DNA of 64,000 nucleotides from a virus. The position numbers and the translations under genes are program-made. Positions 73 through 64,000 of the stretch are shown here, piece by piece (the stretch's first letter is position 1; every line of letters starts with the position of its first letter). The stretch covers positions 1 to 64,000 of the IMG/VR virus record IMGVR_UViG_3300042307_002096; one strand, written 5' to 3'. Below the pieces are notes generated by a model. The model ran no database searches. It saw only the letters and a list, made by a program, of their open reading frames with translations, and was not told the origin of the DNA.

Positions 73-428
73 ATAAATAAACTCATGAAGTCCAAAGACC
101 AACAATTGTTAGAAGAAGCTTACGGAGAAGTAACACTCAGACAAGCAGCTTCACCACGCGTGCAATCAATACTAGACTATAGTAAAAAGGTACTAGACGA
201 AACAGCAGAGACTGGAGAAAACTATCTCGAAGCATTAGATTATATTGCTACAAATATGAAGATTAAGCCAGGAATCTTAAAAAGTTTATTGCTTTTTCAT
301 AAGCTTATAACTGTAGAACAAGGATATGAGTATCAGAAATATGTTGACGGGGAAGAGTTTGCAAACGAGCAATAATTTATAAATAAACTCATGAAGTCCA
401 AAGACCAACAATTGTTAGAAGAAGCTTA
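73..428 (+). repeat. Exact 50-bp direct repeat (73-122 and 379-428) covering promoter plus leader-coding DNA
   Basis: ataaataaactcatgaagtccaaagaccaacaattgttagaagaagctta occurs twice. Confidence 0.9.
85..375 (+). CDS. Small protein with MKSKDQQLLEEAY leader (putative virion internal protein)
   Basis: Shared 13-aa N-terminus; TAAATA 5 nt upstream. Confidence 0.7.
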   Translation: MKSKDQQLLEEAYGEVTLRQAASPRVQSILDYSKKVLDETAETGENYLEALDYIATNMKIKPGILKSLLLFHKLITVEQGYEYQKYVDGEEFANEQ

Positions 429-621
429 TGTTAAGATCAATGAGATGCATGCTCCTGTAGCAGGCATTGATCCAGAGACCCAAGAGATGTATTGGGCTGC
501 TTTTGAGAAGTTTAAGAACGATGAGATCACTGCTCAGCAATGGTATGACATATGTGCAAAGCTTCTCGGAGACTTGATGGAGAAGAACAAGGACGTCTTT
601 GTTCGCCTTAAGCATAGATAA
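391..621 (+). CDS. Leader-family small protein
   Basis: MKSKDQQLLEEAY; TATAAATA upstream. Confidence 0.7.
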   Translation: MKSKDQQLLEEAYVKINEMHAPVAGIDPETQEMYWAAFEKFKNDEITAQQWYDICAKLLGDLMEKNKDVFVRLKHR

Positions 622-629
622 ATAACATC

Positions 630-839
630 ATGAAGTCCAATGATCAGACCCTCTTAGAAGAAGCTTACGAAAAAGTCTTGTTTGATAAAGGCAAACAAAG
701 CATCGAAGAACTTACTAAAGAAATCGACAAGCTTAAAGAGAGGCTTAAGAATGCTCATGACGAGAATGATAAGAAGCAATTGAATAAGATTCTTAAAGCT
801 AAGATGGAGAAGAGAGCAGAACTGGTTGGTAACAAATAA
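630..839 (+). CDS. Leader-family coiled-coil protein
   Basis: MKSNDQTLLEEAY; TAAATA at 619-624. Confidence 0.7.
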   Translation: MKSNDQTLLEEAYEKVLFDKGKQSIEELTKEIDKLKERLKNAHDENDKKQLNKILKAKMEKRAELVGNK

Positions 840-843
840 CCTT

Positions 844-1095
844 ATGAAATCAAAGTTCAATAGCATCATTAATAAGGTTTTAAACGAGTCTGCTGATCAG
901 TTTAGTATAGGAAACGAGTTGTATAATTTGTATACAAATTTGGACCCCAAAGCTAGAACAAAGTCTGGAGCGCTGGTATCAGAAGTACTCAAGAATATTT
1001 TGGATGAGTATGTTCAGATTATTGACCGAGCCAAACAAAATGCCGATCAGCCTGAAGCGATTCAATCATTGTTGCGGCAGCTGAGTTTGGATTAA
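844..1095 (+). CDS. Small protein with variant leader MKSKFNSIINKVLNE
   Basis: ATG at 844 preferred; CAAATA 5 nt upstream. Confidence 0.6.
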   Translation: MKSKFNSIINKVLNESADQFSIGNELYNLYTNLDPKARTKSGALVSEVLKNILDEYVQIIDRAKQNADQPEAIQSLLRQLSLD

Positions 1096-1112
1096 AAAAA
1101 AAATAAAATAGC

Positions 1113-1809: not shown

Positions 1810-1835
1810 TTGACTTGTCCATAGTCTGATATGAT
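1810..1835 (+). promoter_or_regulatory. Early-type promoter TTGACT-TGTCC
   Basis: Recurrent TTGnnn-TGTCC motif; -10 spacing irregular in this copy. Confidence 0.5.
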
Positions 1836-1844
1836 TATGGCAAC

Positions 1845-2075
1845 ATGAGCAATGTTATTAAAGACTACCTGGAGGCCTTGGATGAGAGGGCTAGTCAGGT
1901 AGGAGGGCTTAATCAAGGCCAGCAGTATATTATTGGATTCCTCTATGGGACATTAAAGAAACTTCAGCTACAGGGACACTATCTACATATACTTGAACGG
2001 GATACTAGACAGCTCAAGGGAATGATCCAATGGGAGAAAGACTGGAACGAGAGGAGAATGAATGACAACAACTGA
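1845..2075 (+). CDS. Hypothetical protein
   Basis: ORF downstream of promoter motif. Confidence 0.6.
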   Translation: MSNVIKDYLEALDERASQVGGLNQGQQYIIGFLYGTLKKLQLQGHYLHILERDTRQLKGMIQWEKDWNERRMNDNN

Positions 2076-6561: not shown

Positions 6562-6590
6562 TTGCAATGTCCATTATATTTTCGTATAAT
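6562..6590 (+). promoter_or_regulatory. Early-type promoter TTGCAA-TGTCC...TATAAT
   Basis: 17-nt spacer; ATG 6 nt after -10. Confidence 0.65.
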
Positions 6591-6596
6591 ATTGGC

Positions 6597-7115
6597 ATGA
6601 TTAAACAGAAAAAAGTATCGATGAACCGCAAGAGCATTAATTCTCCATACTTTGCAATTCGAAAGCAAAAGGTTAAATGGCCAACAATTAGACATGCTTA
6701 TATGAACGATTCTAACGTAGAAGTTTTGAAAAATTTTGTTACTAAGAAAGGTCGGTCTATTATTTTTTTGGACGGGAAGTATGACACTACTCTAAATCGC
6801 TACAAGAACCTTCCTTCTGAAGAGCGAGCGGTTTGTTGGGAGTTTATGTGTAGAGAGAAAGGAGTTAAGGGAGGTATTTTTATGCTCTGTTGGCTTGGGA
6901 ACTTTCATAATGGTTGTATCTTCCATGCTTCTCCTCAGTTCCCTCAGATCCAATGTTGGTATGAAGCAATGGGATATGAACAAGCTAATTTATTTTTCGA
7001 AAGACAAGCGTTTAAGATCTATAAAGAAGTAGTATCAATTGTGCACAACGGAGAAAAGATTGTTGACAAAGAAGTAGAGGAATTTATTAATAACGGAATG
7101 AATTCTATTAAATAA
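6597..7115 (+). CDS. Hypothetical protein
   Basis: Start placed after promoter. Confidence 0.6.
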   Translation: MIKQKKVSMNRKSINSPYFAIRKQKVKWPTIRHAYMNDSNVEVLKNFVTKKGRSIIFLDGKYDTTLNRYKNLPSEERAVCWEFMCREKGVKGGIFMLCWLGNFHNGCIFHASPQFPQIQCWYEAMGYEQANLFFERQAFKIYKEVVSIVHNGEKIVDKEVEEFINNGMNSIK

Positions 7116-7119
7116 ACTT

Positions 7120-7779
7120 ATGAAATCCAAAGACCAAATTCTTCTAGAACAAGCATATTTGAAAGTGCTTATTAAAGAAGAATCTATTCTTGTTCCAAGA
7201 AGGTCTAGAGAAGAGCGAGAAAAGAACTATAAAATAGCCATTTTAAGAAAGATTCAAGAATATATTAAAAACGGCTCTACAGGAGATTTAAATTTATACA
7301 ATACTCCAATTGCTTCTCTTCCAAATAATTTAAAAGTTAGTGGAAGTTTAAATTTAAACAATACTCCAATCACCTCTCTTCCAAACAATTTAAAAGTTGG
7401 TGGAGATTTAAATTTAGCCAATACTCCAATTACCTCTCTTCCGAATGGTTTAGAAGTTGGTGGAAGTTTATATTTAATAAAAACTCCAATTGCTTCTCTT
7501 CCAAACAATTTAAAAGTTAGTGGAGATTTAGATTTAAGTAATACTAAAATTACTTCTCTTCCAAATAATTTAAAAGTTGGTGGATATTTAGATTTAAACA
7601 ATACTCCAATCACTTCTCTTCCGACTGGTTTAGAAGTTGATAGCCATTTAATTTTAAACAATACTCCAATCACTTCTCTTCCAAACAATTTAAAAGTTGG
7701 TGGAAGTTTGGATTTAATTAATACTAAAATTACTTCTCTTCCAAATAATTTAAAAGTTAGTGGAGAGATTTATAGATAA
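7120..7779 (+). CDS. Leader-family protein with eight 20-aa LRR-like repeats
   Basis: MKSKDQILLEQAY plus GxLxLxNTPITSLPNNLKVx repeats. Confidence 0.85.
   Translation: MKSKDQILLEQAYLKVLIKEESILVPRRSREEREKNYKIAILRKIQEYIKNGSTGDLNLYNTPIASLPNNLKVSGSLNLNNTPITSLPNNLKVGGDLNLANTPITSLPNGLEVGGSLYLIKTPIASLPNNLKVSGDLDLSNTKITSLPNNLKVGGYLDLNNTPITSLPTGLEVDSHLILNNTPITSLPNNLKVGGSLDLINTKITSLPNNLKVSGEIYR
7282..7761 (+). repeat. Intragenic tandem repeat, 8 x 60 bp
   Basis: Repeat aligns line to line at a 60-nt period. Confidence 0.95.
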
Positions 7780-7788
7780 ATATTTAGA

Positions 7789-8565
7789 ATGAAATCCAAA
7801 GACCAAACACTATTAGAAGAAGCTTATAACTACGTAATAGAAAAGATATCTACAGCAAAATCTCTTTTACAACAAGGAAAATTAAGTCAAGAAGACTTCG
7901 AAAATATAGTAAACTCCGACTTAACTAAACAAAAAAAATACGTTGGTTGGATGGCCAGTCAATGGGTTGCTGGTAATATTTCTGATATAGATGTTTTAAG
8001 AAATACTATAGAAGAATATGATTCTTTTGTTAACAGAAATAAAGTCAAAAACAAAGACATATATCAATATAAATCATTTAATGAATTAAAAAAAGAGATT
8101 GATCGTCTTAACGAAACTGGTGAAAACATTTCCGTAAAAGATTTAGAAAGCGATTATGATATTGTTAGAGATGATGACTCCCTTTTAATTGCTTCGCCAC
8201 ACACACACGAAGCATCTAGAAAGTTAGGTCTATCTCAATTTGCATATAGAAGCTGTGAAGGAGGAGGGAAAGATTCTGCTTGGTGCACAACATACAAAGC
8301 CCCCAACCACTTTAATGATTACTATTACACGCATAACGTAACGTTTTATTATATAAAGGTTAAGTCTTCAGAAATTTTAAAAAAATTACAACAATCTGGT
8401 TTTGGACCGGAATTTAGCGTTGCTGCTATTGCAGTTTTAGACCAAGAAACGTCTAAAAAAGCTTCTAAAAGGGGATATAAAAACATGGATGGTTATGATG
8501 GCCAAGACAAACAATTTAAAGGGGAAAAACTAAAAAAATACTTGGATATAATCGGAATTAGCTAA
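7789..8565 (+). CDS. Leader-family protein with WCT-motif domain
   Basis: MKSKDQTLLEEAY; DSAWCTT..HFNDYY. Confidence 0.7.
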   Translation: MKSKDQTLLEEAYNYVIEKISTAKSLLQQGKLSQEDFENIVNSDLTKQKKYVGWMASQWVAGNISDIDVLRNTIEEYDSFVNRNKVKNKDIYQYKSFNELKKEIDRLNETGENISVKDLESDYDIVRDDDSLLIASPHTHEASRKLGLSQFAYRSCEGGGKDSAWCTTYKAPNHFNDYYYTHNVTFYYIKVKSSEILKKLQQSGFGPEFSVAAIAVLDQETSKKASKRGYKNMDGYDGQDKQFKGEKLKKYLDIIGIS

Positions 8566-9002: not shown

Positions 9003-9533
9003 TTAATACCAATCCGGCTTTGAGCAATTTGTCCAAGTTGCAAACGGTTTGTCTAGCTTAATATACCATTGATATTGTTCTGTAATTGGAATGTTGTTGA
9101 AACCTGCTACTCGTGACCTACAATTCATATCATTGTTAATTGCAATTGCAAACGGAGTTAAATTTGTTTGTTTGCAGTAAAGAGTCTTATCGATATTGTC
9201 TCGGCACCATTCGATGAACGTTTTTGTAAAATGTGGAGCTGATTTTGGCCAACGTCTATCCCTTTCATTAAACATTTCTAAAGCATGTTCAACAAGCCAT
9301 TTAAAATTTTGCTTCGATTCTCGAACCCATACAGCGCAAGGGTGATTAAAATATCCCTTACCTGCTTTGCGAGGAGTACCTTTTTTTGTAAGAGGAGCAC
9401 TTAAAAGAGTTTCATTATCAAAACAATGTTGGAGAAGTATTGCTGACTCTATTTGCATCTTAGAACGGCAATGTTGATCGCAAAGTTCACGAGCTGCTAT
9501 AACCGGGTTTATATTTGTTACGAATATGTTCAC
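9003..9533 (-). CDS. Pyrimidine-dimer DNA glycosylase-like protein
   Basis: MNIF..P...A..LCD.H..KM..E..., NHPC..W.RES..N..WL. Confidence 0.7.
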   Translation of the reverse strand: MNIFVTNINPVIAARELCDQHCRSKMQIESAILLQHCFDNETLLSAPLTKKGTPRKAGKGYFNHPCAVWVRESKQNFKWLVEHALEMFNERDRRWPKSAPHFTKTFIEWCRDNIDKTLYCKQTNLTPFAIAINNDMNCRSRVAGFNNIPITEQYQWYIKLDKPFATWTNCSKPDWY

Positions 9534-9626
9534 TAGACAATTCTAGTAGCATGCGTTGATTAAGTCAACTATTTTTTAATAAATTGACATTGTTAATATT
9601 TAGTCGATTATATGCTAATTACAAAC

Positions 9627-10244: not shown

Positions 10245-10457
10245 TTAACTATTAAAACGTTCTCTTAAACGATTTTGACGAGCAATTTTTTCTTTTTTGT
10301 GATTAGATTTGAGCTTGCGCTTCTTGCGTTGTTGTGGGGTTTCGTATGAACGGAGTCTACGGAGTTCGTCCATCATACCATCCGCATCAATTTTGCCCTT
10401 CAATCGTTTGAGTGCTCTATCAATTGGTTCGTCTTTTCTTAATTTAACTTCAAACAT
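10245..10457 (-). CDS. rpsU: 30S ribosomal protein bS21
   Basis: EPIDRALKRLK..., R..YETP..RK.RK. Confidence 0.85.
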   Translation of the reverse strand: MFEVKLRKDEPIDRALKRLKGKIDADGMMDELRRLRSYETPQQRKKRKLKSNHKKEKIARQNRLRERFNS

Positions 10458-10519
10458 ATGAGCTTTTATTTATTTGTTTAAAAACAAAATTTCTCTAATA
10501 TTTTTTAAAACCGTTAGTC

Positions 10520-13009
10520 TCATTCCTTTGTTTTCTTTTTTATTTGAGTTTTCTTTGGTTTTACTTCTTTAAAGGTCAACACCTCGCCTTCCTTTTCTGC
10601 GTTTACTAAGCTTCCTGGCTTGAACGTGTCTTTAAGTATTTCTTCTGCCATGGGATCTTCGATATATTTTTCGACTGCACGTCTCATTGGTCGAGCTCCG
10701 TATGTAGGATCATATCCTTTTTCAATTAAAAGCTCTTTAGCTGAATTACTCAACACAAGTTCAATTCCTCGTTCTTTTAATCTGCTTGTAATTTTTTGAA
10801 TTTCTAAATCTACAATTTTAATAAGTTCTGGTTTATCCAGCGAACGGAACACAATCATGCTATCCAAACGATTGATCAATTCTGGTTTAAAATGCATTTT
10901 AGCTTCTGCTAGAATTTTTTCTTTCATTGATTCGTGGTCACTAGACGGTTCAGCTTTAACGCCAAAGCCGAGACTCGTTTGCTTTTTGGCCATGGTAGCT
11001 CCGACATTAGAAGTCATGATGATAATCGTATTGCGAAAATCTACTTTTCTTCCAAACGAGTCAGTTACCTTTCCCTCTTCCAATATCTGCAAAAGAAGAT
11101 GAAGTGCATCCGGATGTGCTTTTTCTACTTCATCAAATAAAACAACGGAGTACGGTTTACGTCGAATTGCTTCAGTAAGCTGTCCTCCTTCTTCATATCC
11201 AATGTATCCTGGAGGAGGTCCGATCAACCGAGATACTGAAAATTTTTCCATGTATTCGCTCATGTCGATTTGAACAATAGATTCTTTTGTTCCAAATATA
11301 AGTTCTGCAAGAGATTGAGTAAGATGTGTTTTTCCTACACCAGTTGGACCTAAAAACAAAAATGAACCAATAGGACGTCTGGGGTCTTTGAGGTCTGCGC
11401 GCGCTCGGCGCATCGCTTTACTGATAGAAGCAACTGCCTCGTCTTGGCCAATAACCTTCTCCTCTAAATCTTTTTCCATCGTCAACAGTTTTGCTGCTTC
11501 CTTTTGTTCAATTTTAGTCAAAGGGATTCCTGTCCATTTAGCAAGAACTTGCATAATTTGATCTTCTCCTACTACGACTTCTTTTTCATGTTTGTCTTTG
11601 TTCCACTGCTCAATTGCGTCTTTTAGTAAATTTTGAACATTTCGTTCTTGGTCTCTAATGTCAGCTGCTTCTTCAAATTTTTGAGAAGAAATTGCATTAA
11701 GCTTTTGTTTGTTTAACTCTGAAATAGAATTTTCAAACGCACTAAAGTTCGGAGAAGGTACGCGAGCATCTATTCGTGCTCGGGAACCAGCTTCATCCAT
11801 AAGATCGATTGCTTTATCGGGAAGAAATCTATTAGAAAGATATCGCTCTGACAGTTTCGCAGCAGCCTCTAAAGAGCTGTCAAGAAATTTGGCTTTATGG
11901 TGTTGTTCATACTTTGGTCTAATTCCTTGTAGGATCTTTATTGTTTGTTCAATCGAAGGAGCATCTACTTTAATTTGCTGAAATCTTCTTTCTAAAGCAG
12001 CATCCTTTTCAATGTATTTTCTGTATTCGTTGAGAGTAGTTGCCCCGAGTAGTTGCAATTCGCCTCTGCTTAATGCTGGCTTAAAAATGTTTGATGCATC
12101 CATCGAGCCAGAAGCAGCCCCTGCTCCGACCATAGTGTGAATCTCATCTATAAACAAAATAACATTTCCTTCTGTCTTGACCTCGGTCATTATTGATTTA
12201 ATGCGTTCTTCGAATTGTCCTCTGTACATGGTTCCAGCAACAATCAATGCTAAATCCAATGCAATAACACGTTTATTTAAAAGAAGGTCAGGTACATTTT
12301 TTGAGGCAATTGATTGAGCTAATCCTTCAGCAATAGCCGTTTTACCTACACCAGCTTCTCCTATTAATATTGGATTATTTTTAGTACGACGACAGAGAAT
12401 TTGAATTGCTCTCTCAATTTCTTCTTCTCTTCCAATCACAGGATCCAATTCATTTTTTTCTGCTAGCTCAGTCAAGTCTTTTCCGTAAGTTGCAAGAGAA
12501 GAGCTTTTCTTTTTGGATTTTTCTTTTTGCGGTTTTTCCTCACCAGCTGGAACAAGCTCATTGGGTTTATAATTGGGATCGAGTTTGTTTAAAATTTCTT
12601 CTTTTACGGAATCGTAATCCAATCCGAGTTTGTTTAAAGTAATCGCTGCAGTTCCGTTTCCTTCGACAATGATACCAAGAAGAATATGCTCAGTGCCAAC
12701 ATACGTATGACTCATTTTTTTTGACTCTTTATCTGCTAAAGCAAGAACTTTTTTTACTCTTGGAGTCATCTGGATATTGTTTTGTTGAGTAATTTTGTCG
12801 TCATTTGGTTCGAGCTCCTCAATCAATTCGTAAATATCCTCAAGCTCTATGTCAAAATTTTTTAAAACACTAGCAGCAAGTCCTTGACCAATTTTTATTA
12901 AACCAACCAAAAGATGTTCCGTGCCTATGTAATTATGTTTAAGACTTTCAGCTTCTTTTCTGGCTAATGCTAGCGCTTGCTGAGCTCGAGGCGTAAAATT
13001 GTTTGACAT
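10520..13009 (-). CDS. clpC: ClpC AAA+ unfoldase
   Basis: Two Clp_N repeats, GEAGVGKT and GPTGVGKT Walker A, UVR middle domain (FEEAADIRD), SLGF ClpP-docking loop. Confidence 0.95.
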
Positions 13010-13154
13010 CTAGAAAAATTTATATGATTTAAATATTTTTTCAAGGATCAAATTAGTTTTCCTTGTCTTTCAATGACTTCTCTGCGTTTAAAAAATTGCT
13101 CATGAACTTATTTAATAAACTAATAAATAACCGCAATAATTTAATAAGCTTATT

Positions 13155-13231: not shown

Positions 13232-13271
13232 GTTCCATTAAATAATATTAAGTATATGCGAATAAATTTAC

Positions 13272-13358: not shown

Positions 13359-13573
13359 GATCTTCCACGTGGAATAAACAACCTGTGCCTTTTGTTTGCG
13401 GTCATATTGATGGCAATCCAACAAACAACAATTATAGCAACTTTTGAATTGTTTGTTGCAATTGTGATGCTCAGCTACCAACATATAAGTCCAAAAATTG
13501 TGGTAAAGGTAGACAATACGACAGAGAAAGATATGATATTTTCAATAAATAAACATATCATTGCAAACGAGAC

Positions 13574-13645: not shown

Positions 13646-13699
13646 CATTTTAACAGGGTTTAACAAGATTTACAGCAAGGTTTTTTGATAAGTAATATC

Positions 13700-14041
13700 A
13701 TGAACTTCAACTCTGCAACTTATAATGCAATTATTACTTTTAATACTGCATCGAAAGCTGGCAAAGGATTTGGCTTGTTTAATCAATGGGTTAAAAAAGC
13801 TTTGTATGGAACTTTGTTAAAAAAGGAAGGAGAGAACGGAGAGTATTCTATATACGGGCTAAATTATCAAGATGGTAAAGATTATGTTACATTTAATATA
13901 GAATCTGCTTCTTCAGAAAATATTTACTGGCAGCTAAACAATATTAAAAATTTTGTGAAAACTCTTTCAGGAGCATTAGAATTTCATGCTGATGTGCTCA
14001 TTAAATCCAAAAAAGTCTTTTGGTCTGCAGGAGAAGAATAA
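13700..14041 (+). CDS. Hypothetical protein
   Basis: TAAGTA 5 nt before ATG 13700. Confidence 0.6.
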   Translation: MNFNSATYNAIITFNTASKAGKGFGLFNQWVKKALYGTLLKKEGENGEYSIYGLNYQDGKDYVTFNIESASSENIYWQLNNIKNFVKTLSGALEFHADVLIKSKKVFWSAGEE

Positions 14042-14082
14042 TTTGTGTTGACTTATATTTTATATAAATTAACATCAACGGT

Positions 14083-16213: not shown

Positions 16214-16248
16214 TTGACTGTCCGTTTTATTGAGTGATAATATTAGCT

Positions 16249-17253: not shown

Positions 17254-17287
17254 TAAATAGGTACGAAACTTTGATCTTTGAAATTAT

Positions 17288-17751: not shown

Positions 17752-17777
17752 ATTTCAAATGATTAAATAAAATAAAA

Positions 17778-17968: not shown

Positions 17969-18025
17969 AGTAATATTACTTATTTTTTTCTTGACAATTT
18001 TTTTAATTCAACTAGTATATAAATC

Positions 18026-18792: not shown

Positions 18793-18969
18793 ATGACACA
18801 AACAGAAAACACAACCGAAGGAAAAGTATATCAACTATGCCAGGAGCTAGATGATATCAAGAAGCGCAAAAAAGCTTTTGTTAAAGCCTATAACGTCGAA
18901 ATTAGGCGCATTCAAGACGAAATTCAAGATATTCTTAATCCGGAAGAAGCTGTAGTAGAACTTCCATAA
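18793..18969 (+). CDS. Small coiled-coil protein
   Basis: Start moved downstream of tRNA-Gly. Confidence 0.55.
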   Translation: MTQTENTTEGKVYQLCQELDDIKKRKKAFVKAYNVEIRRIQDEIQDILNPEEAVVELP

Positions 18970-46848: not shown

Positions 46849-46880
46849 AAAATAAAATAGCTACTGTACTCTAGTAACAG

Positions 46881-48677: not shown

Positions 48678-48708
48678 ATTAAAATCAACACACCTTTTAA
48701 ATAACACT

Positions 48709-49938: not shown

Positions 49939-49969
49939 TTTTGTTAATTTTTTTGGTATTATAAAACGC

Positions 49970-52522: not shown

Positions 52523-52530
52523 ATAACATT

Positions 52531-52809
52531 ATGTATGCTGCTGAACAACTTTTTCAGGCGCTTTCATACGAAGAGCTCTATTACACTCTTCGAAGCATTG
52601 CTGATGAAGATTCGTATTTTGATGATTTTTTAGACAATAAAATTTTAGAAGATTTTTTGTACATGCTGGAAATTTATGATATATTATTTTTATCTTCAGA
52701 TGGCAGAGTATTGCTTACGCAAAAAGGAGAAAAGGTTTTGCAGTATGTCGGGCGCATTGTTGATTTAGATAAAATTAATAATAAGGTAAAAAGGAAAAAA
52801 TATGAGTAA
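52531..52809 (+). CDS. Hypothetical protein (possible winged helix)
   Basis: LTQKGEK motif; TAAATA 5 nt upstream. Confidence 0.55.
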   Translation: MYAAEQLFQALSYEELYYTLRSIADEDSYFDDFLDNKILEDFLYMLEIYDILFLSSDGRVLLTQKGEKVLQYVGRIVDLDKINNKVKRKKYE

Positions 52810-53212: not shown

Positions 53213-53250
53213 GTTGAAAAGAAAAATAAAGAAGGGATAGTATCAATTGT

Positions 53251-54405
53251 ATGGCTAAAATTAAAAAAAATAACAATGACGACGACTTAAAAGACTCCGT
53301 TACTAATTCAATTCAAGATGCTTTTAAAATATTGGACAAACTTAATTCTAATGCAGCTTTTTTGGACAACAATAGTTTGTCCACTGTCAACGAATGGATT
53401 GATACGGGTTCATATGCCCTTAATGCAATTATTTCCGGATCCCTTTTTGGAGGAGTGCCAATGGGCAGACTTACTGCGTTTATTGGAGCAGAAAGCTGTG
53501 GAAAAACTTTAATGGCCAACAAAATTATGGCCAATGCTCAAAAGAAAGGAATGTATGTTGCTTATTTTGATACAGAAGGAGCACTAGATGAAGCAACAGC
53601 TAAAAGATTGGGTTGTGATACATCAAAAATTAAGCATGTTCCCTCAGAAATCACAGAGCAATGTCGAAATGAAATTGTGCAATTTTTAGATTCAATTTTA
53701 ACAAACAATCTACAAGGAAAAGTTTTAATTGTTATTGACTCTCTTGGAAATTTAATTACATCTCAAGAAAAAAAGAAAATCGAGGAGGGGTCAGAAACAT
53801 TGGATATGGGAAATAGAAGCAAACAGTTAAAAAGCTTGATGCGTGCCGTAACTCACGCTGCAGCGAAAGCAAATTGTCCTGTAATTTTTACGAACCACGT
53901 TTATGAAGATCCTTCGCAACTTCACCCTTCCGCAATTAAAAAGCAAGCAGGAGGATCTGGACCTCTTTATATGTCTTCTGTAATTGTTCAAATGGCAAAG
54001 AAAACAGAACGAGCTGAAGATTCAAAAAACAAAGATGCTAATACGGAAACTACTCTTATTTCCAAAGGAATTAACGGCGTTACTTTAAGAGCACTTACTA
54101 CCAAAAACCGCTTTGTGACCCCATTTTTGGAAATTGAAATGTATTTAAATTTTCGTACTGGTTTAAATAAATTTTCCGGTCTTCTTGAAATGGCCGAAGG
54201 ATATGGAGTTATAGAGCGCCGCGGCCACCAATTTGCGTTTCAAGGAGAGCTACTTGGTTATTACAAAGATTGGAAAGAAGACGAAACAGTTTGGGATAAA
54301 ATTCTTCCAGTATTAGAAAAAAAGCTTCAAACTGAATTGTGCTTTAAAAACGAATCTCAAATTGAGGAAGAAGAAAACGAAGCCCAATGCGAAGTTTGTG
54401 ATTAA
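53251..54405 (+). CDS. uvsX: RecA-like recombinase UvsX
   Basis: DTGSYALNA, GAESCGKT, DTE, IDSLG, TNH, KNRF. Confidence 0.92.
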   Translation: MAKIKKNNNDDDLKDSVTNSIQDAFKILDKLNSNAAFLDNNSLSTVNEWIDTGSYALNAIISGSLFGGVPMGRLTAFIGAESCGKTLMANKIMANAQKKGMYVAYFDTEGALDEATAKRLGCDTSKIKHVPSEITEQCRNEIVQFLDSILTNNLQGKVLIVIDSLGNLITSQEKKKIEEGSETLDMGNRSKQLKSLMRAVTHAAAKANCPVIFTNHVYEDPSQLHPSAIKKQAGGSGPLYMSSVIVQMAKKTERAEDSKNKDANTETTLISKGINGVTLRALTTKNRFVTPFLEIEMYLNFRTGLNKFSGLLEMAEGYGVIERRGHQFAFQGELLGYYKDWKEDETVWDKILPVLEKKLQTELCFKNESQIEEEENEAQCEVCD

Positions 54406-54455: not shown

Positions 54456-55553
54456 ATGAATCTCATCGAAGCTAAATTTATTGAATCAGGATTGAAATAC
54501 AAATCCAATTTTGAAGTGTCAAAATTAACCAATATTGTTGCGCACGAGCAACAAAAAAATTGCAATCAATACTACAAATGGTATGCAACGTATGAAAATA
54601 TAGTATACCCAATTAATTTAACTAGAAACAAAACATTTTTAATTGATGTTTTTTGTAACGAGTGCGACAAAATAATTAAAAAGGATGCTAGATTAAGCTC
54701 AATGTTCACGTTTTCTATTTGCTGTGAGAGCAATTTAAAGTATTCAGAGTCTTTTTCTGTCCGATGCAAAAAATGTTCTAGCAGGAAAAACGGGTCAGAA
54801 ACCGTGCAAAAAGGAGTTAATACTCGTCTACAACGTTATGGGTGTGCATATACGTTTCAAATGCCAAATTATGCTAGAGACGCTCACATAACTAAAACGT
54901 TGAAATACGGAGTTGATTATAAAAAAATTTGTTCAAAAAAGGGACAAAAGAGGTATTTCGATAAAACAGGTTATAATCACAACATGAAAAACCCTGAATG
55001 TGTAAATGTTCACAAACAAAAAAGAAAACAGACTATTTTAAATTGGACACCAGAACGTAAAACAGAAATAAATACAAAAAGGTTATTATCATATCAAAAA
55101 GAAAGTTCGGATGGTCTTTTTGGAAAAAAAAGTAAAAATCCTAGAAGCAAAATATCTATAGATTTTTACGAACAATTTTACAAAGCAACCGACTATTCGA
55201 TATGCATTGAAGAACAAATTGGTAGATATATTGTAGATTTTTTAATACCAAATATGTGTATTATTGAATTTTATGGTACATTTTGGCATGCAGATCCAAG
55301 AAAATACAAAGCTGGTGACATCCTTAAGCGAGGAAATAGTGAAAAATATCATGTAACAGCTCAAGAAGTATGGCAAAAAGATTACGAAAGAATCACAGAA
55401 TTAGTGGAAAACACTAAACTTCCTTGTATAATTGTTTGGGAGAATGATTATAGAAAAAACAAAGGAGCGACAATCCAAACCGTTTTGCAAAAAATAATAA
55501 AATTTAAAAACATCCACTTAGCACAGAATGAGCAAAGAACCAATTCCATCTAA
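54456..55553 (+). CDS. Free-standing homing-type endonuclease (Vsr/DUF559-like C-terminus)
   Basis: CxxC, KYG-type repeats, YIVDF....IIEFYG.FWHADP, VWE. Confidence 0.75.
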   Translation: MNLIEAKFIESGLKYKSNFEVSKLTNIVAHEQQKNCNQYYKWYATYENIVYPINLTRNKTFLIDVFCNECDKIIKKDARLSSMFTFSICCESNLKYSESFSVRCKKCSSRKNGSETVQKGVNTRLQRYGCAYTFQMPNYARDAHITKTLKYGVDYKKICSKKGQKRYFDKTGYNHNMKNPECVNVHKQKRKQTILNWTPERKTEINTKRLLSYQKESSDGLFGKKSKNPRSKISIDFYEQFYKATDYSICIEEQIGRYIVDFLIPNMCIIEFYGTFWHADPRKYKAGDILKRGNSEKYHVTAQEVWQKDYERITELVENTKLPCIIVWENDYRKNKGATIQTVLQKIIKFKNIHLAQNEQRTNSI

Positions 55554-58160: not shown

Positions 58161-58755
58161 ACCGTTTAAACTCAAAAAGGATTTTTCCAATATCGTAGAT
58201 ACCGACAAACACAAATTTTTAAAAAGAATTTCTACTCTATTCGAAAAGCACCCGGAAATTAATCCGGATTTATTTTTTAAAGCACCATATAAATTGTACC
58301 CAGATGTAGAATATTTTGGTTTAGATTACTTTTCTACAATGCGAGCAGTCAAGTCGTATACGACCTATAAAAAACAAATATTTTTACAGGATCCAGACAG
58401 TCAATTAGAACAAATTAAAGAATCGTTGACGTTTATTACAAAGTTTTGTATTGAAAATAACATATATTTTCACCAATACCCACAACACCGTTCTTCTGAT
58501 TTATTTACGTGGATGCAACATTACAAACAAAATAAAATTAACATTTACAGCGTTATGGGGTTTCCTAATATATTTTCTTCTGCTAAGAGCTTGGCAGAAG
58601 ATGTTCAAAAATTCTTTGTTAGCGAATTTATAGATCAATTTCAAAATCTTTATATTTTGTATAACAAATCAGCAGAGCTCAAACCATACATCCAAAAAAT
58701 AACACCTGTTCTTTCAAATTTTGTTGAAAAACAGTTGACCAAACCAACAAACTAG
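58078..58755 (+). CDS. Hypothetical protein, gp59-like by position
   Basis: Size and position directly upstream of gp32-like SSB; synteny only. Confidence 0.4.
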   Translation: MANQSQITELEKHLFNKHLAVSRSEKNKPFKLKKDFSNIVDTDKHKFLKRISTLFEKHPEINPDLFFKAPYKLYPDVEYFGLDYFSTMRAVKSYTTYKKQIFLQDPDSQLEQIKESLTFITKFCIENNIYFHQYPQHRSSDLFTWMQHYKQNKINIYSVMGFPNIFSSAKSLAEDVQKFFVSEFIDQFQNLYILYNKSAELKPYIQKITPVLSNFVEKQLTKPTN

Positions 58756-58776
58756 TCTATTATTAAAAACGAAATT

Positions 58777-59730
58777 ATGAGTATTAACACTAAATCAATG
58801 TTCGAAGCAATCAAGCAATCTCTTTCCTCAGATAAGAAGGAAGGTAACGGAAACGGTCTTTATAAAGAAATTATGAAGTTTTCCGCTGGTAATACATATC
58901 AGGTCCGCTTGGTACCAAATCCAAATTCTCCTAAAGAGACAATCTTTCATTATTACAATCACGGCTGGAATTCTAACGCGACAGGCAAGTATGTGACAGC
59001 ACTTTGTCCAACTACATTTGGAGATACGTGCCCAATTGATGCTTATTATCTAAAAACATACCGTACTGGTACCGAATCAGAAAAAGAAGCAGCTCGTGTT
59101 TTGTCGCGAAAAGAAGCCTGGATGGTTAACGTATATGTTATTTCAGATCCAGAAAATCCCGAGAACGAAGGAAAGGTTAAAATTCTTCGTTACGGAAAAG
59201 AGCTAGCTAAAATTATTGACTCTGCTCTTGAAGGAGATGATGCTGCAGAATTTGGAGTCGAGAAGGTATTTGACACTGCTAATGGGAGTACACTTCGTAT
59301 TAAGTGCGAAAGCCGTACTGGTGCTGGCCGTGGAAACAAGCAAATGGTTACGTATGCTTCCTCTAAGTTCTTGGCGCCAACTGCACTGGATCTAGATGAA
59401 ACTGCTATCGAACAAATTTACGGCACAGTACATGACCTTAAAGCTGTAAACAAGCAAACTACTCCAGCTGAAATGCAACGCTTGCTTGACGAACATTTCT
59501 TTAATTTGACTACAGGTTCTGTAGTTGAAGATGATTCTGACGATGAATATGCTCCAATTCGTAACGAAAAGCCCTCGTCAGTTAAGAAAACAGCAGAAGT
59601 AATTGAGAGCGTTTTTGAAGATGTTGAAACACCATTTAAACCTGCTGCTAAAATTTCCGCAAAAGAAGAAATTAATGAAACAGACGAGTCCACTGATGAA
59701 GCTTTGAAAAAATTGCTTGCTGATCTGTAA
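58777..59730 (+). CDS. ssDNA-binding protein (gp32-like)
   Basis: VRLVP, H..., CP....CPI, NVYV..DP.NPENEGKV, acidic tail. Confidence 0.9.
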   Translation: MSINTKSMFEAIKQSLSSDKKEGNGNGLYKEIMKFSAGNTYQVRLVPNPNSPKETIFHYYNHGWNSNATGKYVTALCPTTFGDTCPIDAYYLKTYRTGTESEKEAARVLSRKEAWMVNVYVISDPENPENEGKVKILRYGKELAKIIDSALEGDDAAEFGVEKVFDTANGSTLRIKCESRTGAGRGNKQMVTYASSKFLAPTALDLDETAIEQIYGTVHDLKAVNKQTTPAEMQRLLDEHFFNLTTGSVVEDDSDDEYAPIRNEKPSSVKKTAEVIESVFEDVETPFKPAAKISAKEEINETDESTDEALKKLLADL

Positions 59731-60481: not shown

Positions 60482-60940
60482 ATGTTTACAGAAGACAACC
60501 TCGCCACAGCTCAAATAGCTCAATTATTTGGCTCTGAACTACTCAAAGTGCAACAAAACGCTACTACTGATTCAGGTTCTCAGCCCAATATTGTCAACAT
60601 CGATCCAAAGCAATTTCTTGTAAATGCTCCTCAATATCAGTCTGCAAAGAAAATAGAAGAGCAGCGTCTTATTCAGATGTTGCAAAGAGAAGCTGAACTG
60701 GCGTGCCCGTTGCCTGATTCTGGTTCTTCTCCTTTGCTCTCTGTTGATCCAGTGCCAGTAGTTCCTGTCAGCACAATTAACTCTCCACTCACAAATCGAA
60801 CAATAACTCCTATTGGTGCGGATAATTCAACTGGGGAAGTTTGGGAAAAAATTAACAAAAATCTTGAACGTATTGCAAACCGACTGGAAAATGTTGACAT
60901 AACTATCAAGAAAAAAAGGGCAAAACGTACCACCAAATGA
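60482..60940 (+). CDS. Hypothetical protein
   Basis: TTGACT...TAAACT promoter upstream. Confidence 0.55.
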   Translation: MFTEDNLATAQIAQLFGSELLKVQQNATTDSGSQPNIVNIDPKQFLVNAPQYQSAKKIEEQRLIQMLQREAELACPLPDSGSSPLLSVDPVPVVPVSTINSPLTNRTITPIGADNSTGEVWEKINKNLERIANRLENVDITIKKKRAKRTTK

Positions 60941-61653
60941 AGCTAACTATTAATAAAAACGATTTTGTTAATAACGTTCTAGGACCTGTTTCTAAGCTTG
61001 CTGACAATCTTTTGTTGGAGTTTGTGCAAGACACAAAAGCCAAGACGATGGTTAATTCGTCAGACAATTCTGTAATTCTTCTTGGAAGTGTTCCTTGTCA
61101 AGTTAAGGAACCATTTAAATGTGTAATTCCTGATTGCAAAACTTTTTTAAGATTGTTTTCAGGAATTGAGAAAGAAACGATCACTTTAGAAGTGGAGTCA
61201 AACGTAATTAAATACCAAGACATTTCCTTTTCTTTCAAGTATCATTTACTTGACGAGAGTTATATTGTAAATAAAAAATCAATTAGTGAAGAAAAACTCA
61301 ATCAGTTAGTATACGATACTGTTTTTGTGATGACCAAACAAAAGCTTTCTGAAATTATTAAATTCAACAGTATAGTTCCGGATGCAGAAAAGCTTTATTT
61401 TATTTCTGAAAACAACAAAATTTTAGCAAAACTAGGAGACGAACAAAAAGCTAATACAAACGAAATCGTTACAGAAATTAGTAGCGAATTTAGTGGAAAA
61501 CATTTGACCGAAAAGTTTCCGATTAATATTCAAAATATTCTTTTGTTTTCTTTTAGTTCAGAAGAAATTAAAATTAGTATTAACCATCAACTTAAAGTCT
61601 TTAAGTTTGAGAGTCCTCTTTTAAGTTATATTGTATCTGGACTTGTAAAGTAA
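60937..61653 (+). CDS. Sliding clamp-like (gp45/PCNA fold) protein
   Basis: 238 aa, MKLTI start, two-domain alpha/beta pattern; replication context. Confidence 0.55.
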   Translation: MKLTINKNDFVNNVLGPVSKLADNLLLEFVQDTKAKTMVNSSDNSVILLGSVPCQVKEPFKCVIPDCKTFLRLFSGIEKETITLEVESNVIKYQDISFSFKYHLLDESYIVNKKSISEEKLNQLVYDTVFVMTKQKLSEIIKFNSIVPDAEKLYFISENNKILAKLGDEQKANTNEIVTEISSEFSGKHLTEKFPINIQNILLFSFSSEEIKISINHQLKVFKFESPLLSYIVSGLVK

Positions 61654-61671
61654 ACAGCCTAAATAAATTTT

Positions 61672-62013
61672 ATGGCTAATAAACTAACAACTCTTGGATA
61701 TACACTTAAACGTTTTCGTGATTCTGGGTACATGGCAAATAAATTATTTGCTGAATACAGAGACTTAGATCCAAGAGCTTGGACAATAATGATCGAACCA
61801 AACGTGGCTTCTGTTTTTTGTACATGTTACATAAACGACCCATATATTGGTGAAACATTTTTTGAGCTCTATGATGGAAATCAATACATTCCCGGTAGAC
61901 TTAAGATTCAAACATCATCATTCGAGGTTATTGTTGAACATCTAGTAAAATACGGCATTATTGGTAGCAAAGCTTCTCAAAAAGAAGAGCCATTGAAAAA
62001 CTCAACCTTCTAG
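61672..62013 (+). CDS. Hypothetical protein
   Basis: TAAATA 6 nt upstream. Confidence 0.6.
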   Translation: MANKLTTLGYTLKRFRDSGYMANKLFAEYRDLDPRAWTIMIEPNVASVFCTCYINDPYIGETFFELYDGNQYIPGRLKIQTSSFEVIVEHLVKYGIIGSKASQKEEPLKNSTF

Positions 62014-62025
62014 CTAAATAGGTCT

Positions 62026-62361
62026 ATGGCAACGCCCAAAAAGAAAACTGTAAAGAAGACACTACACCCATCTTCTGAATCAAACATTCCAAAAGCAGAA
62101 AAAATTAATATAGAACAACTGTTTGAGCAAGCCGTACTAAGACACAAAAAAGACGAGCTATTAGATAAAAAAGTTAAACACAAGGAAATAGCTCATCTTT
62201 CTTTAATTGCTGAAGAATATTTAAGCAGCTTTGCCTTAATTGGATTTTCCTTGCAAGATGAAGAGGTTGTAGTATTTAACGTGCCAACCCGAAAAGACGA
62301 AGCAGCACTAGCTGATTTATTAAGAGCCACGTTTATTGACATGGCTAGTAATCGTCCCTAA
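62026..62361 (+). CDS. Hypothetical protein
   Basis: TAAATA 5 nt upstream. Confidence 0.6.
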   Translation: MATPKKKTVKKTLHPSSESNIPKAEKINIEQLFEQAVLRHKKDELLDKKVKHKEIAHLSLIAEEYLSSFALIGFSLQDEEVVVFNVPTRKDEAALADLLRATFIDMASNRP

Positions 62362-62369
62362 TTACTTCC

Positions 62370-64000
62370 ATGCTGGAAGATAACGCAGAAGAACAAAAAG
62401 GACGTAGAGGCCGTCCTAAGGGATCAAAAAATAAACCTAAAAGAGGCCGTCCTAAAGGATCAACAATTTCCAAAAAACCAACTCTGAGTCTCAAAAAAGA
62501 GACAAAGCTCAATAAAATTGGGGTTGCAGAAAACTCAACAACGTACAAATCAGAAGAAGATGCATTAAATTCGGTTTTAGACGAAAATAAATTTACGGAA
62601 GCTGGGTACAATACCGACACAAATAAAATAATTAACCAAGAGCCTGTTGATTCTTCTTACTATTACAGAGGATCCAAGCACGTTCCTGTAGCCGGAGCTC
62701 AATATGAGTTTACAGCGGACATGGTTGAAGAGCTAAGAAGATGCAAAAACAGCGTCGTGTATTTTGCTGAAAATTTCTTTTATATTGTTAGTTTAGATAG
62801 AGGCAAGGAAAAAATTAAATTATATAATGCCCAAAAACAAATGCTGGAAAATATGGTATCTCATAGATTTACAGCAAATTTAGCATCCAGACAAAGTGGT
62901 AAAACTTCTCTTTTAACTATATTTGCTTTATGGATGGTTTGCTTTAACGACGACCATAGAGCAGCAATTGTTGCTAACAAAGAAGCAACAGCCATTAATA
63001 TTTTTAAACGCGTGAGGATGGCATACGAACAGCTTCCAAATTATATTAAGCCTGGTGTTAAAGATTATGGAAAGACTGGAATGACTCTTGGCAACGATTC
63101 AAGTATTATAGTTTCTACAACTACTGCTACATCGATCCGCGGTGACAGTCTTAATACCATTTGTTTGGATGAAGCGGCGTTTATTGAACCTCATTTGCTT
63201 GAAGAGTTTTGGGCATCAGTTATTCCAGCAATTTCTTCTGGTAAAAATTCTAAAATTTTAATGGTGTCTACACCAAATGGCGTAGGTAATAAATTTTATG
63301 AAATATTTTCCGGAGCCGAAAGCGGCAAGCTACCTCAATGGAAAGCATCAAGAATTGATTGGTGGGATAGACCAGAAAGAGATGAAAATTGGAAGCAAGA
63401 CATGATTGCTGTACTTGGTTCAGAAGAAAAATTTCAACAAGAATTTGGCAATATGTTTTTAGATGATGCCGCCGCTGCAGTTGGAGCATCTATTATTGAA
63501 CGATTTAAAACGCAAAAAATAAATCCTATTTGGTCATCAGATGATGGAGAGTATGTAGTATTTGAATATCCAGATAGTAACAGATTATATGTAGTTGGCG
63601 TTGATGTTGGAGAAGGTATCGGCAGAGCTTCGTCTGTAGCTCAAATTTTAGACGTAACAGACCTCCAAAATATTAAACAAGTAGCTGTGTACGGTTCTGC
63701 TAAAATTGAACCATATCACTTTGCTAATAAACTGTCGGTTATTGGTCAATCATGGGGATTGCCTCCAATTTTAATCGAAAGAAATAATTGTGGAGCTCAA
63801 GTCATTGATGCATTACATCACAATCACAATTACGAAAAAATTGTATCATATTCTAAGATTTCAGAGCAAGACAAATATAATAAAACAAGAAACATGGGTG
63901 TTCTTTCCCATACAAATATTCGTTTTGATGGTATCCAAAATATGAGGTATTGGATTAACCATCTCCAAACTGTACACATAAATGATCCTCAAACAATTTC
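62370..64000 (+). CDS. Terminase large subunit (gp17-like), runs off window end; absent from ORF track
   Basis: Manual translation: ASRQSGKT, ICLDEAAF, VSTPNG, GVDVGEG nuclease motif. Confidence 0.93.
   Translation, partial: MLEDNAEEQKGRRGRPKGSKNKPKRGRPKGSTISKKPTLSLKKETKLNKIGVAENSTTYKSEEDALNSVLDENKFTEAGYNTDTNKIINQEPVDSSYYYRGSKHVPVAGAQYEFTADMVEELRRCKNSVVYFAENFFYIVSLDRGKEKIKLYNAQKQMLENMVSHRFTANLASRQSGKTSLLTIFALWMVCFNDDHRAAIVANKEATAINIFKRVRMAYEQLPNYIKPGVKDYGKTGMTLGNDSSIIVSTTTATSIRGDSLNTICLDEAAFIEPHLLEEFWASVIPAISSGKNSKILMVSTPNGVGNKFYEIFSGAESGKLPQWKASRIDWWDRPERDENWKQDMIAVLGSEEKFQQEFGNMFLDDAAAAVGASIIERFKTQKINPIWSSDDGEYVVFEYPDSNRLYVVGVDVGEGIGRASSVAQILDVTDLQNIKQVAVYGSAKIEPYHFANKLSVIGQSWGLPPILIERNNCGAQVIDALHHNHNYEKIVSYSKISEQDKYNKTRNMGVLSHTNIRFDGIQNMRYWINHLQTVHINDPQTI

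Follow-up and report, generated by a model that had tools for sequence, protein, structure and literature searches.

Two promoter classes at the start codons of a distant T4-like phage predict leaderless first-gene mRNAs

The stretch of viral DNA analysed here (IMG/VR record IMGVR_UViG_3300042307_002096, positions 1 to 64,000; the window, 64,000 nucleotides long) is part of the genome of a distant, uncultured T4-like phage, and it carries promoter-like motifs immediately in front of many start codons. This arrangement raises the question of whether transcription begins on the start codon itself, as a first-pass annotation had proposed for nearly the whole genome. We found two promoter classes at start codons, and we consider it likely from this layout that the mRNAs of the first genes of transcription units are leaderless. 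Many mRNAs of the phage and its relatives probably begin at AUG with no ribosome-binding leader.

The first class is a late-type box, TAAATA(A) with the variants TAATTA and TAAGTA, that has no –35 element and is found before the late genes for terminase, tail sheath and tail tube. Its spacing is not single but ranges from N5 to N8. All of the N5 and N6 sites listed here had been reported by the first-pass annotation and were reproduced, with some starts (32549, 48709 and 22281, as well as 6597 and 16249 below) placed further downstream than the longest ORF would begin in order to match.
74–87 (+): TAAATA-N5-ATG, gene 85–375, MKSK family
380–393 (+): TAAATA-N5-ATG, gene 391–621, MKSK family
619–632 (+): TAAATA-N5-ATG, gene 630–839, MKSK family; TAA doubles as upstream stop codon
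2401–2416 (+): TAAATA-N7-ATG, gene 2414–2896, MKSK family
7109–7122 (+): TAAATA-N5-ATG, gene 7120–7779, MKSK family
7777–7791 (+): TAAATA-N6-ATG, gene 7789–8565, MKSK family
13689–13702 (+): TAAGTA-N5-ATG, start 13700
22279–22292 (–): TAAATA-N5-ATG, start 22281, 127 aa, Ig-like tail/decoration matches
23416–23429 (+): TAAGTA-N5-ATG, start 23427, first gene of the 23427–26378 cassette
32492–32505 (–): TAATTA-N5-ATG, start 32494
32538–32551 (+): TAAATA-N5-ATG, start 32549
33441–33456 (+): TAAATA-N7-ATG, gene 33454–33762
35331–35345 (+): TAAATA-N6-ATG, thymidylate-kinase-like gene 35343–36014
37081–37094 (–): TAATTA-N5-ATG, start 37083
48698–48711 (+): TAAATA-N5-ATG, glycosyltransferase-like gene, start 48709
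52520–52533 (+): TAAATA-N5-ATG, gene 52531–52809; TAA doubles as PolB stop codon
54445–54458 (+): TAAATA-N5-ATG, gene 54456–55553
61660–61674 (+): TAAATA-N6-ATG, gene 61672–62013
62015–62028 (+): TAAATA-N5-ATG, gene 62026–62361
62359–62372 (+): TAATTA-N5-ATG, large terminase, start 62370

The box is presumably recognised by a sigma factor of the phage's own.
39397–39885 (+): gp55-type late sigma factor gene; matches phrog_234 'late sigma transcription factor' (E 6e-18) and T4 gp55 chain 7D7C_F (E 5.5e-4)

TAAATA-N5-ATG was matched 13 times in the window, compared with 2.0 ± 1.45 times in 100 shuffles (largest value, 7), with three of the matches (6392, 13114 and 60455, the latter two on the minus strand) opening just 10–21 codons. 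When gene starts were called independently of the motif, TAAATA was present 5–6 nt upstream of 14 of 115 gene starts versus 6 of 2255 other ATGs (Fisher test, p = 5.5e-15). Among the 15 hexamers of composition A4T2, TAAATA is the rarest, yet it is the sole one that peaks sharply 5 nt before ATGs opening ORFs of at least 80 codons, with 10 cases at this distance in the contig and 29 in dereplicated clade loci; the composition-matched controls, including the TAA-initial TAAAAT and TAATAA, showed no peak before long-ORF ATGs. TAAATA is avoided genome-wide (ratio of 0.81 in the contig and of 0.68, z –9.6, in the clade, with shifted control hexamers near 1.0), and no hexamer is more under-represented than TAATTA (z –7.3).

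The second class is a sigma70-type pattern, TTGAnn-N16–18-TAnnnT, that ends 6–8 nt upstream of start codons. Such pairs at 6, 7 and 8 nt before long-ORF ATGs numbered 3, 5 and 1, respectively, in the contig and 20, 8 and 14 in the clade, and control –35/–10 pairs with the wrong spacer gave no 6–8 nt peak before long-ORF ATGs. Given that a scan with the generic sigma70 consensus yielded promoter-like sites no more often than in shuffles of this AT-rich DNA, the case for this class draws on where the motifs lie and how they are conserved rather than on how many there are. The –10 boxes previously noted 6–7 nt before 6597, 16249, 18026, 29947 (a GTG), 33811, 49970 and 53251 were recovered together with –35 partners.
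1810–1847 (+): TTGACT(tgtcc)-17-GATTAT-N6-ATG, gene 1845–2075
6562–6599 (+): TTGCAA-17-TATAAT-N6-ATG, start 6597
9531–9568 (–): TTGACT-17-TAGAAT-N6-GTG, start 9533
13007–13044 (–): TTGAAA-16-TAAATT-N7-ATG, ClpC-like gene, start 13009
14048–14085 (+): TTGACT-16-TAACAT-N7-GTG, start 14083
16214–16251 (+): TTGACT(gtcc)-16-GATAAT-N7-ATG, start 16249
17991–18028 (+): TTGACA-16-TAGTAT-N7-ATG, gene 18026–18337
29913–29949 (+): TTGATT-16-TATCTT-N6-GTG, start 29947
33777–33813 (+): TTGACA-16-TAAACT-N6-ATG, gene 33811–34092
46845–46883 (+): TTGAAA-16-TACTCT-N8-ATG, gp46/SbcC-like gene
49935–49972 (+): TTGATT-16-(TG)TATTAT-N7-ATG, family B DNA polymerase (PolB), start 49970
53214–53253 (+): TTGAAA-18-TAGTAT-N7-ATG, UvsX, start 53251
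58735–58779 (+): TTGACC-17-TATTAT-N13-ATG, gp32 SSB, start 58777; short SD-less leader predicted

Both layouts are kept gene by gene in relatives with 50–95% protein identity, the spacers having diverged. Of 82 orthologs of late-class genes, 73 have a TAA[AGT]T[AT] box no more than 22 nt from the start; it is retained in 19 of 23 orthologs of the glycosyltransferase-like gene at 48709 (mostly 5–8 nt before ATG) and in 10 of 10 of gene 61672–62013 (mostly 5–7 nt). Orthologs of gene 54456–55553 in loci L002, L022 and L036 have TAAATA-N5-GTG, and those of the large terminase in L026 and L179 have TAAATA at the position of TAATTA in the window. For PolB, the –35/–10 pair was found in 19 of 24 orthologs, with the –10 ending 6–8 nt before ATG in 16 and a diverged spacer sequence; for gp46, the pair was found in 13 of 15, with the –10 ending 6–9 nt before ATG in 11. 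The –10 ends 6–9 nt before ATG in all six UvsX orthologs, and its distance from ATG is 7–13 nt in those of gp32.

Where, then, would transcription start? The T4 late promoter TATAAATA occupies –13 to –6 (PMC2988020), so that TAAATA-N5 would put +1 on the A of ATG, as the first-pass annotation had reasoned. Extrapolation from T4 and sigma70 geometry predicts for both classes a +1 on, or approximately 0–3 nt from, the A (sometimes G) of the first start codon of the unit. It is rather unlikely that the promoters are real but initiate elsewhere, in or just after the box or several nt before the ATG, and so generate SD-less leaders of approximately 3–10 nt. Such an offset would suit the variable spacing (N5–N8 for late boxes; 6–9 and up to 13–18 nt for the sigma70 –10) and the divergence of the gp55-type sigma (~23 bits to T4 gp55), whose own geometry may differ, but the modal spacings of N5 and of 6–7 nt are those that place +1 on the start codon's A or G in known systems (PMC2988020, PMC6028130), and start codons are purine-initial (ATG, with GTG in orthologs), as for an initiating nucleotide. 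The variation in spacing does suggest that some transcripts carry short leaders: sigma70-type –10 boxes lie 9–18 nt before starts 39397 (TTGAAA-16-TATAAT, ending 10 nt before the ATG of the gp55-type gene), 52802 and 58777, with predicted leaders of approximately 4–12 nt.

The virtual absence of Shine-Dalgarno (SD) sequences, also remarked on earlier, was upheld: SD-like 4-mers at –20 to –4 precede 9 of 116 ORFs (7.8%), a background level (9.4% for all ATGs), and G is depleted at –12 to –4. Starts in general share an A-rich region at –11 to –5, and A follows start-adjacent boxes more often than other TAAATA copies (15/19 versus 34/104). These features, together with the A-rich contexts known in SD-scarce hosts (PMC6028130, group B), would be expected if TAAATAA-N4-ATG were a non-SD translation signal (for instance, an A/U-rich enhancer bound by S1, or a 'Kozak-like' context of the Bacteroidota type) and the mRNAs were leadered, with transcription beginning further upstream. 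We regard this explanation as improbable, however, given that the late hexamer is also found 8–28 nt upstream of 7 of the 12 tRNA and tmRNA genes, which are not translated, in agreement with the earlier annotation; a tRNA-Arg gene follows a sigma70-type pair.
13124–13129 (+): TAAATA, 25 nt before tRNA-Asp
13239–13254 (+): TAAATA and TAAGTA, 27 and 17 nt before tRNA-Ser(tga)
13546–13551 (+): TAAATA, 22 nt before tRNA-Ala
17254–17259 (+): TAAATA, 28 nt before tmRNA
17764–17769 (+): TAAATA, 8 nt before tRNA-Ser(aga)
18967–18972 (+): TAAATA, 8 nt before tRNA-Ile
19290–19295 (+): TAAGTA, 9 nt before initiator-like (Met-like) tRNA(CAU)
20480–20514 (+): TTGACT(tgtcc)-17-TATCCT, 16 nt from –10 to tRNA-Arg

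In addition, the box was found in none of 44 tightly coupled genes and in only 1 of 50 of their orthologs, where a general ribosome-binding site would be expected too; it is the T4 late promoter core in a genome that encodes a gp55 homolog and marks classic late genes with it; and a translation signal would leave unexplained the early-gene –35/–10 pairs with their 16–18 nt spacing. The presence of the box before tRNA and tmRNA genes, its absence within operons, its avoidance genome-wide and its gene-by-gene conservation thus support the view that the motifs act as promoters, not ribosome-binding signals.

The proposal of near genome-wide leaderless translation goes too far: approximately 38 of 91 ORFs in the window (~40%) are promoter-abutted, whereas 32 (~35–40%) are operon-internal and without a motif, and a few promoters have the short leaders predicted above. 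Operon-internal junctions are coupled (ATGA, TAATG), and these genes must be translated via SD-independent coupling. The gp41 helicase gene is an example, with a late box in 0 of 19 orthologs and ATGA or TGAATG junctions instead.
55528–55530 (+): operon-internal start without motif, gp41 helicase, overlapping the upstream gene

An artefact of AT-rich intergenic DNA, of upstream TAA stop codons within the motif or of upstream sequence duplicated within a single paralog family is highly improbable and was not supported when tested. Of the 14 TAAATA cases next to starts, 5 do overlap the stop of an upstream frame and 5 come from the MKSK family, and generic promoter matches do not exceed shuffles. 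Once both sets were removed, however, the enrichment did not vanish (7 cases left; odds ratio, 26; p = 4.7e-7), the peak is specific to TAAATA, and orthologs of gene 52531–52809 retain the box even with the stop codon elsewhere (for example, L026).

According to the leaderless explanation, early and middle genes (DNA polymerase, gp46, UvsX, ClpC and others) would be transcribed from host sigma70-type promoters, and late genes (terminase, sheath, tube, the MKSK internal-protein-like family and others) from the –10-like box. Ribosomes carrying initiator tRNA would bind the 5'-terminal AUG or GUG, and downstream genes of each unit, also SD-less, would be translated through termination-reinitiation where stop and start codons overlap or abut. 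The host probably belongs to Verrucomicrobiota, as the phage ClpC nests in this phylum in a phylogeny; within it, Akkermansia is SD-scarce (PMC10783764), with approximately 10% of its transcription start sites leaderless (PMC4782308). The annotation had also suggested a possible link to the phage bS21 and the initiator-like tRNA; for bS21, in E. coli, it is loss of uS2/bS21 that favours leaderless mRNA (PMC10491246), the opposite direction.

The late class resembles T4 late promoters, which gp55 recognises together with gp33 and the gp45 clamp (PMC2988020), in its core hexamer, the A/T-rich stretch that follows and the lack of a conserved –35. T4 lacks the layout, however: in a T4 control, the same box lay approximately 24–29 nt before ATGs with a GGAG SD between, compared with 5–7 nt and no SD here. 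Here the initial two bases of the T4 octamer show no conservation and the variants TAATTA and TAAGTA are used; a search of this partial contig found no gp33 and a weak gp45-like match. Mapped leaderless phage transcription is already known: a preprint (bioRxiv 10.64898/2026.04.20.719267, citing Sevostyanova 2007) describes most transcripts of the Thermus phages phiYS40 and Lalka27a as leaderless. These are also large phages; their promoters, a phage-specific late class among them, put the initiator A or G at the 5' end, and their host group uses leaderless mRNA. They are unrelated, neither T4-like nor equipped with gp55; TAGGGT is their late –10, a conserved C lies at –25, and their 5' ends were mapped experimentally whereas ours are predicted. 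In GeneMarkS-2 'group C' genomes (Actinobacteria, Deinococcus-Thermus), a Pribnow box likewise lies 6–8 nt before first-in-operon starts (PMC6028130, PMC12340547), both GTG and ATG; these are bacteria whose internal genes use SD sites, whereas the phage has overlapping stop/start junctions and an additional gp55-type promoter class. The lambda cI mRNA from PRM, the classic leaderless phage mRNA (PMC10491246), also begins on the A of AUG and is translated independently of SD, but it is the product of one regulatory gene, and both lambda and its host use SD sites; here, leaderless initiation would be the rule for promoter-proximal genes. Our literature search found no publication on a start-abutted late-box layout in the cultured SAR11 myophage HTVC008M, a T4-like Pelagibacter phage whose PolB ranks with the top isolate matches for that of the window, at an identity (30%) that indicates another lineage with another host. 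The first 50 kb of HTVC008M reproduce the layout, with TAAATA peaking exactly 5 nt before long-ORF ATGs (9 cases).

The window comprises positions 1 to 64,000 of one virus record of 78,040 bp (the contig). Its GC content is approximately 34%, and approximately 93% of it is coding (translation table 11). In addition to 11 or 12 tRNA genes and one tmRNA gene, it contains a T4-type module for replication and recombination:

49970-52522, family B DNA polymerase (PolB)
53251-54405, UvsX
58777-59730, gp32-like SSB
gp46/gp47-like nuclease subunits and a gp41-like helicase, part of the same module

Genes for the large terminase, tail sheath, and tail tube are located at the end of the window or just beyond it. 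PolB identity to isolates did not exceed approximately 32%, and many relatives were found in IMG/VR, with PolB identities of 57–95% and contigs of up to 217 kb. Given the 217-kb related contig, the full genome is probably larger than the 78-kb contig.

The first-pass annotation had described promoters that sit directly on start codons. We confirmed this observation, and every late box (TAAATA or the variants TAATTA and TAAGTA, shortly before a start) and sigma70-type site that it had listed was found again at its coordinate. The arrangement TAAATA-N5-ATG occurred 13 times, compared with 2.0 ± 1.45 times in shuffled sequences, and over the whole contig, the ATG after a TAAATA was most often 5 nt away (15 cases), with 6 nt next (5 cases). 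TAAATA was the rarest of the 15 hexamers of A4T2 composition (123 copies) and the only one of them to peak sharply 5 nt before ATGs opening at least 80 codons, the contig and dereplicated loci of the clade contributing 10 and 29 cases, respectively. TAATTA and TAAGTA also showed peaks 5–6 nt before ATGs. With the first ATG of every ORF taken as its start, a call that makes no use of the motif, a box at N5–6 preceded 14 of 115 starts, compared with only 6 of the 2255 remaining ATGs (p = 5.5e-15). Exclusion of five MKSK-family paralogs and five overlaps with stop codons left 7 cases (p = 4.7e-7), so that the enrichment persisted once TAA serving as the upstream stop codon, and the paralogs as well, had been removed. 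On the basis of the hexamer comparison and this filtered test, we rejected an artefact of stop codons, paralogs, or AT-richness. The small to medium ORFs of the MKSK family, which begin with ATG AAG/AAA TCC AAA, are located in the window at 85, 391, 630, 1113, 1453, 2414, 7120, 7789, and 8594. A late box lies upstream of most family members, which are not independent cases in the motif statistics, and their layout is reminiscent of the leader that targets T4 internal proteins to the capsid.

The hexamer had also been proposed to be more than a ribosome-binding signal, and its occurrence before tRNA and tmRNA genes together with its avoidance elsewhere in the genome bears this out. TAAATA was present 8–28 nt upstream of genes for tRNA-Asp, tRNA-Ser, tRNA-Ala, a further tRNA-Ser, tRNA-Ile, and tmRNA, TAAGTA upstream of a Met-like tRNA gene, and a TTGACT...TATCCT pair before the tRNA-Arg gene. 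The non-SD (non-Shine-Dalgarno) motif of GeneMarkS-2 group B (Bacteroidota type) precedes first and internal genes alike, whereas internal genes here are devoid of the motif: it was found in none of the 44 coupled genes of the contig (those overlapping the preceding gene or abutting it) and, among 50 orthologs of such genes, was missing from all but one. No hexamer of the contig was more strongly under-represented than TAATTA (62 copies, compared with 126 expected; z = –7.3). The ratio of observed to expected copies of TAAATA was 0.81 in the contig and 0.68 in a subset of the clade (z = –9.6), and that of TAAGTA was 0.6, with shifted or permuted hexamers yielding ratios near 1.0. TAATTA is a palindrome, and its depletion may result in part from restriction avoidance. 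GAATTC (32 copies, compared with 56 expected) and CTGCAA/TTGCAG were also strongly under-represented, a scarcity that suggests avoidance of restriction sites. Extension to TAAATAA was apparent for 15 of 19 start-adjacent copies, compared with 34 of 104 copies elsewhere, in agreement with the A/T-rich stretch that follows the box in T4 (PMC2988020). The reading of the boxes as promoters is thus well supported.

The contig encodes a candidate factor for recognition of these boxes:

39397-39885, gp55-family late sigma gene (phrog_234, E = 6e-18; T4 gp55 7D7C_F, E = 5.5e-4, residues 49–128)

In tblastn, this gene matched sequences annotated as late sigma factors in Cr30, S-B68, and RHph_I1_18. Late transcription of the T4 gp55 type has been studied for decades. 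The TAAATA(A) core of the T4 late box TATAAATA is conserved here, but the bases at –13 and –12 are not, and TAATTA and TAAGTA also serve as variants of the box. The first T of TATAAATA is at –13 (PMC2988020), which places the last A at –6, so that TAAATA-N5-ATG would put +1 on the A of ATG; the geometry proposed in the first-pass annotation would therefore agree with that published for T4. In T4, approximately 24–29 nt, including a GGAG, separate the box from ATGs, compared with 5 nt in the contig, whereas the first 50 kb of the cultured phage HTVC008M showed the same TAAATA peak 5 nt before ATGs. The box preceded the virion (late) genes for the large terminase, tail sheath, and tail tube as well as their orthologs, and no conserved TTGA was apparent upstream of the box in late-gene orthologs. 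The gene at 60937-61653 gave a weak match to a processivity-factor PHROG (E = 4.7e-4) and is a gp45 candidate, and gp33 was not found in the 78-kb contig, a piece of a probably larger genome.

Sigma70-type pairs (TTGAnn-N16-18-TAnnnT) before the ATGs of long ORFs peaked at 6, 7, and 8 nt, with 3, 5, and 1 cases, respectively, in the contig and 20, 8, and 14 in the clade, and controls with a wrong spacer or scrambled motif showed no peak at 6–8 nt. A –10 element that ends 6–7 nt before ATG would likewise put +1 on A, a layout that characterizes leaderless genes of "group C" genomes (PMC6028130). A generic consensus scan of 44–64 kb yielded 88 promoter-like sites, compared with 83 in shuffles, so that the sigma70-type argument rests on position and conservation, motif counts by themselves being no evidence; terminator-like sites in the same region were likewise not in excess (12, compared with 10 in shuffles). 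A subset of early-type promoters contains TGTCC abutting the –35 hexamer (TTGA-N1-2-TGTCC; 6 copies, compared with 1.2 expected), at 1810, 3350, 16214, 18334, 20480, and 22318 of the window, all on the + strand. The TGTCC box was also present in the PolB promoters of five relatives (L009, L019, L023, L025, and L028) and may denote a subclass of promoters under separate regulation.

Both promoter types were conserved among relatives. In orthologs of PolB, gp46, and UvsX, TTGAnn and TAnnnT remained in register with ATG while the intervening sequence had diverged, and the –10 element of promoter-bearing orthologs ended 6–9 nt before ATG in 17 of 19, 11 of 13, and 6 of 6 cases, respectively. A TAA[AGT]T[AT] box lying no more than 22 nt from the start was retained in 73 of 82 orthologs of the genes at 48709 (glycosyltransferase-like), 52531, and 61672 and of terminase, sheath, and tube, including some whose upstream stop codon is located elsewhere. 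Such a box was present in only 1 of 50 orthologs of operon-internal genes (gp41, 43280, 60937, 58078, and tube-1), which have ATGA, TGAATG, or TAATATG junctions in its place. In 8 of 11 orthologs, a TAATATG junction links the terminase stop to the start of the next, tail tube–like gene (L160:4375-4390; contig 64375-64390), and this conserved junction is, as judged from its sequence, a clean example of SD-free translational coupling. GTG replaces ATG at N5 after the late box in 54456 orthologs of L002, L022, and L036 and in the terminase gene of L171, which implies leaderless GUG initiation. Leaderless initiation at GUG has been reported for mycobacteria and Thermus phages.

SD sequences were essentially absent, as had been noted: SD-like 4-mers were at background level (7.8%, compared with 9.4%), and G was depleted upstream of starts. 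The –10 element ended approximately 6–8 nt before the start codons of first-in-operon genes, and leaderless mRNAs are the most likely consequence of this promoter layout, a conclusion that we hold with fair confidence. Among 116 ORFs of the contig, 25 had a late-type box 4–8 nt upstream, 19 had a sigma70-type pair (3–5 of them doubtful), 44 overlapped or abutted the upstream gene without a motif, and 28 fell in no class. The corresponding numbers for the window were 22, 16, 32, and 21, so that the description of leaderless translation as near genome-wide was too strong, although promoter-proximal genes do appear to be leaderless. In a few cases, the promoter would leave a short leader (10 nt for the sigma gene, approximately 14–18 nt for 52802, and 13 nt for gp32). 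Contig ends of 74 related IMG/VR loci did not pile up on start codons, and a preference for A at +4 did not set promoter-abutted genes apart from coupled ones. Several longest-ORF starts in the contig are probably off by 5–28 codons, and a promoter-aware start model of the "group C" type would correct wrong starts. For uncultured T4-like phages, the late box also provides a cheap means of predicting late genes and transcription units.

With regard to the host, the following gene was informative:

10520-13009, – strand, full-length ClpC-type ATPase (Clp_N, UVR, and two AAA domains)

It was 57–63% identical to ClpC of Verrucomicrobiota and at most 55% identical to others, and it was placed inside Verrucomicrobiota in a FastTree tree (SH-like support of 99). 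The phage bS21 gene is directly downstream of clpC, both within 10245-13009 on the – strand, and its product was 44–56% identical to bS21 of the ClpC-matching MAGs. Akkermansia is reported to be SD-scarce (PMC10783764) and to have approximately 10% leaderless transcription start sites with –35/–10 motifs (PMC4782308). These ClpC, bS21, and Akkermansia data fit a probable host in Verrucomicrobiota. The Chthoniobacterales MAG with the best ClpC and bS21 matches was rejected as the host because of its GC content of 55%; for start context, 312 kb of this MAG was analyzed, in which longest-ORF start calls were too poor for any signal.

The window also encodes an unusual tRNA:

19305-19391, initiator-like tRNA(CAU) with encoded CCA (tRNA-Met by ARAGORN; below the Rfam gathering threshold)

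Three G-C/C-G pairs form the base of its anticodon stem, its variable arm is long, and it has the C1.A72 mismatch that is a hallmark of initiators; TAAGTA is located 9 nt upstream. E. coli ribosomes without uS2 and bS21 favor leaderless mRNA (PMC10491246), a result that lends no support to a simple positive role of phage bS21. More tentatively, this freshwater T4-like clade, with a host probably in Verrucomicrobiota, might run a wholly SD-free program in which sigma70 early and gp55 late promoters are fused to start codons, the first mRNA of each unit is leaderless, internal genes are translated by reinitiation, and phage bS21, initiator-like tRNA, and tmRNA tune the ribosome pool. If RNA ends bear out the leaderless transcripts, gp55-type late transcription would have been rewired in aquatic T4-like phages, with mRNAs starting on AUG, and SD-independent leaderless initiation would be a major mode of phage expression in SD-scarce hosts. 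For the Thermus phages phiYS40 and Lalka27a, a preprint describes most transcripts as mapped leaderless (bioRxiv 10.64898/2026.04.20.719267), and our literature search returned no paper on leaderless late genes in T4-like phages. A 104-nt Rfam tRNA match (52 bits) at 20270-20373 was missed by ARAGORN, and its length suggests that it holds an insertion or intron.
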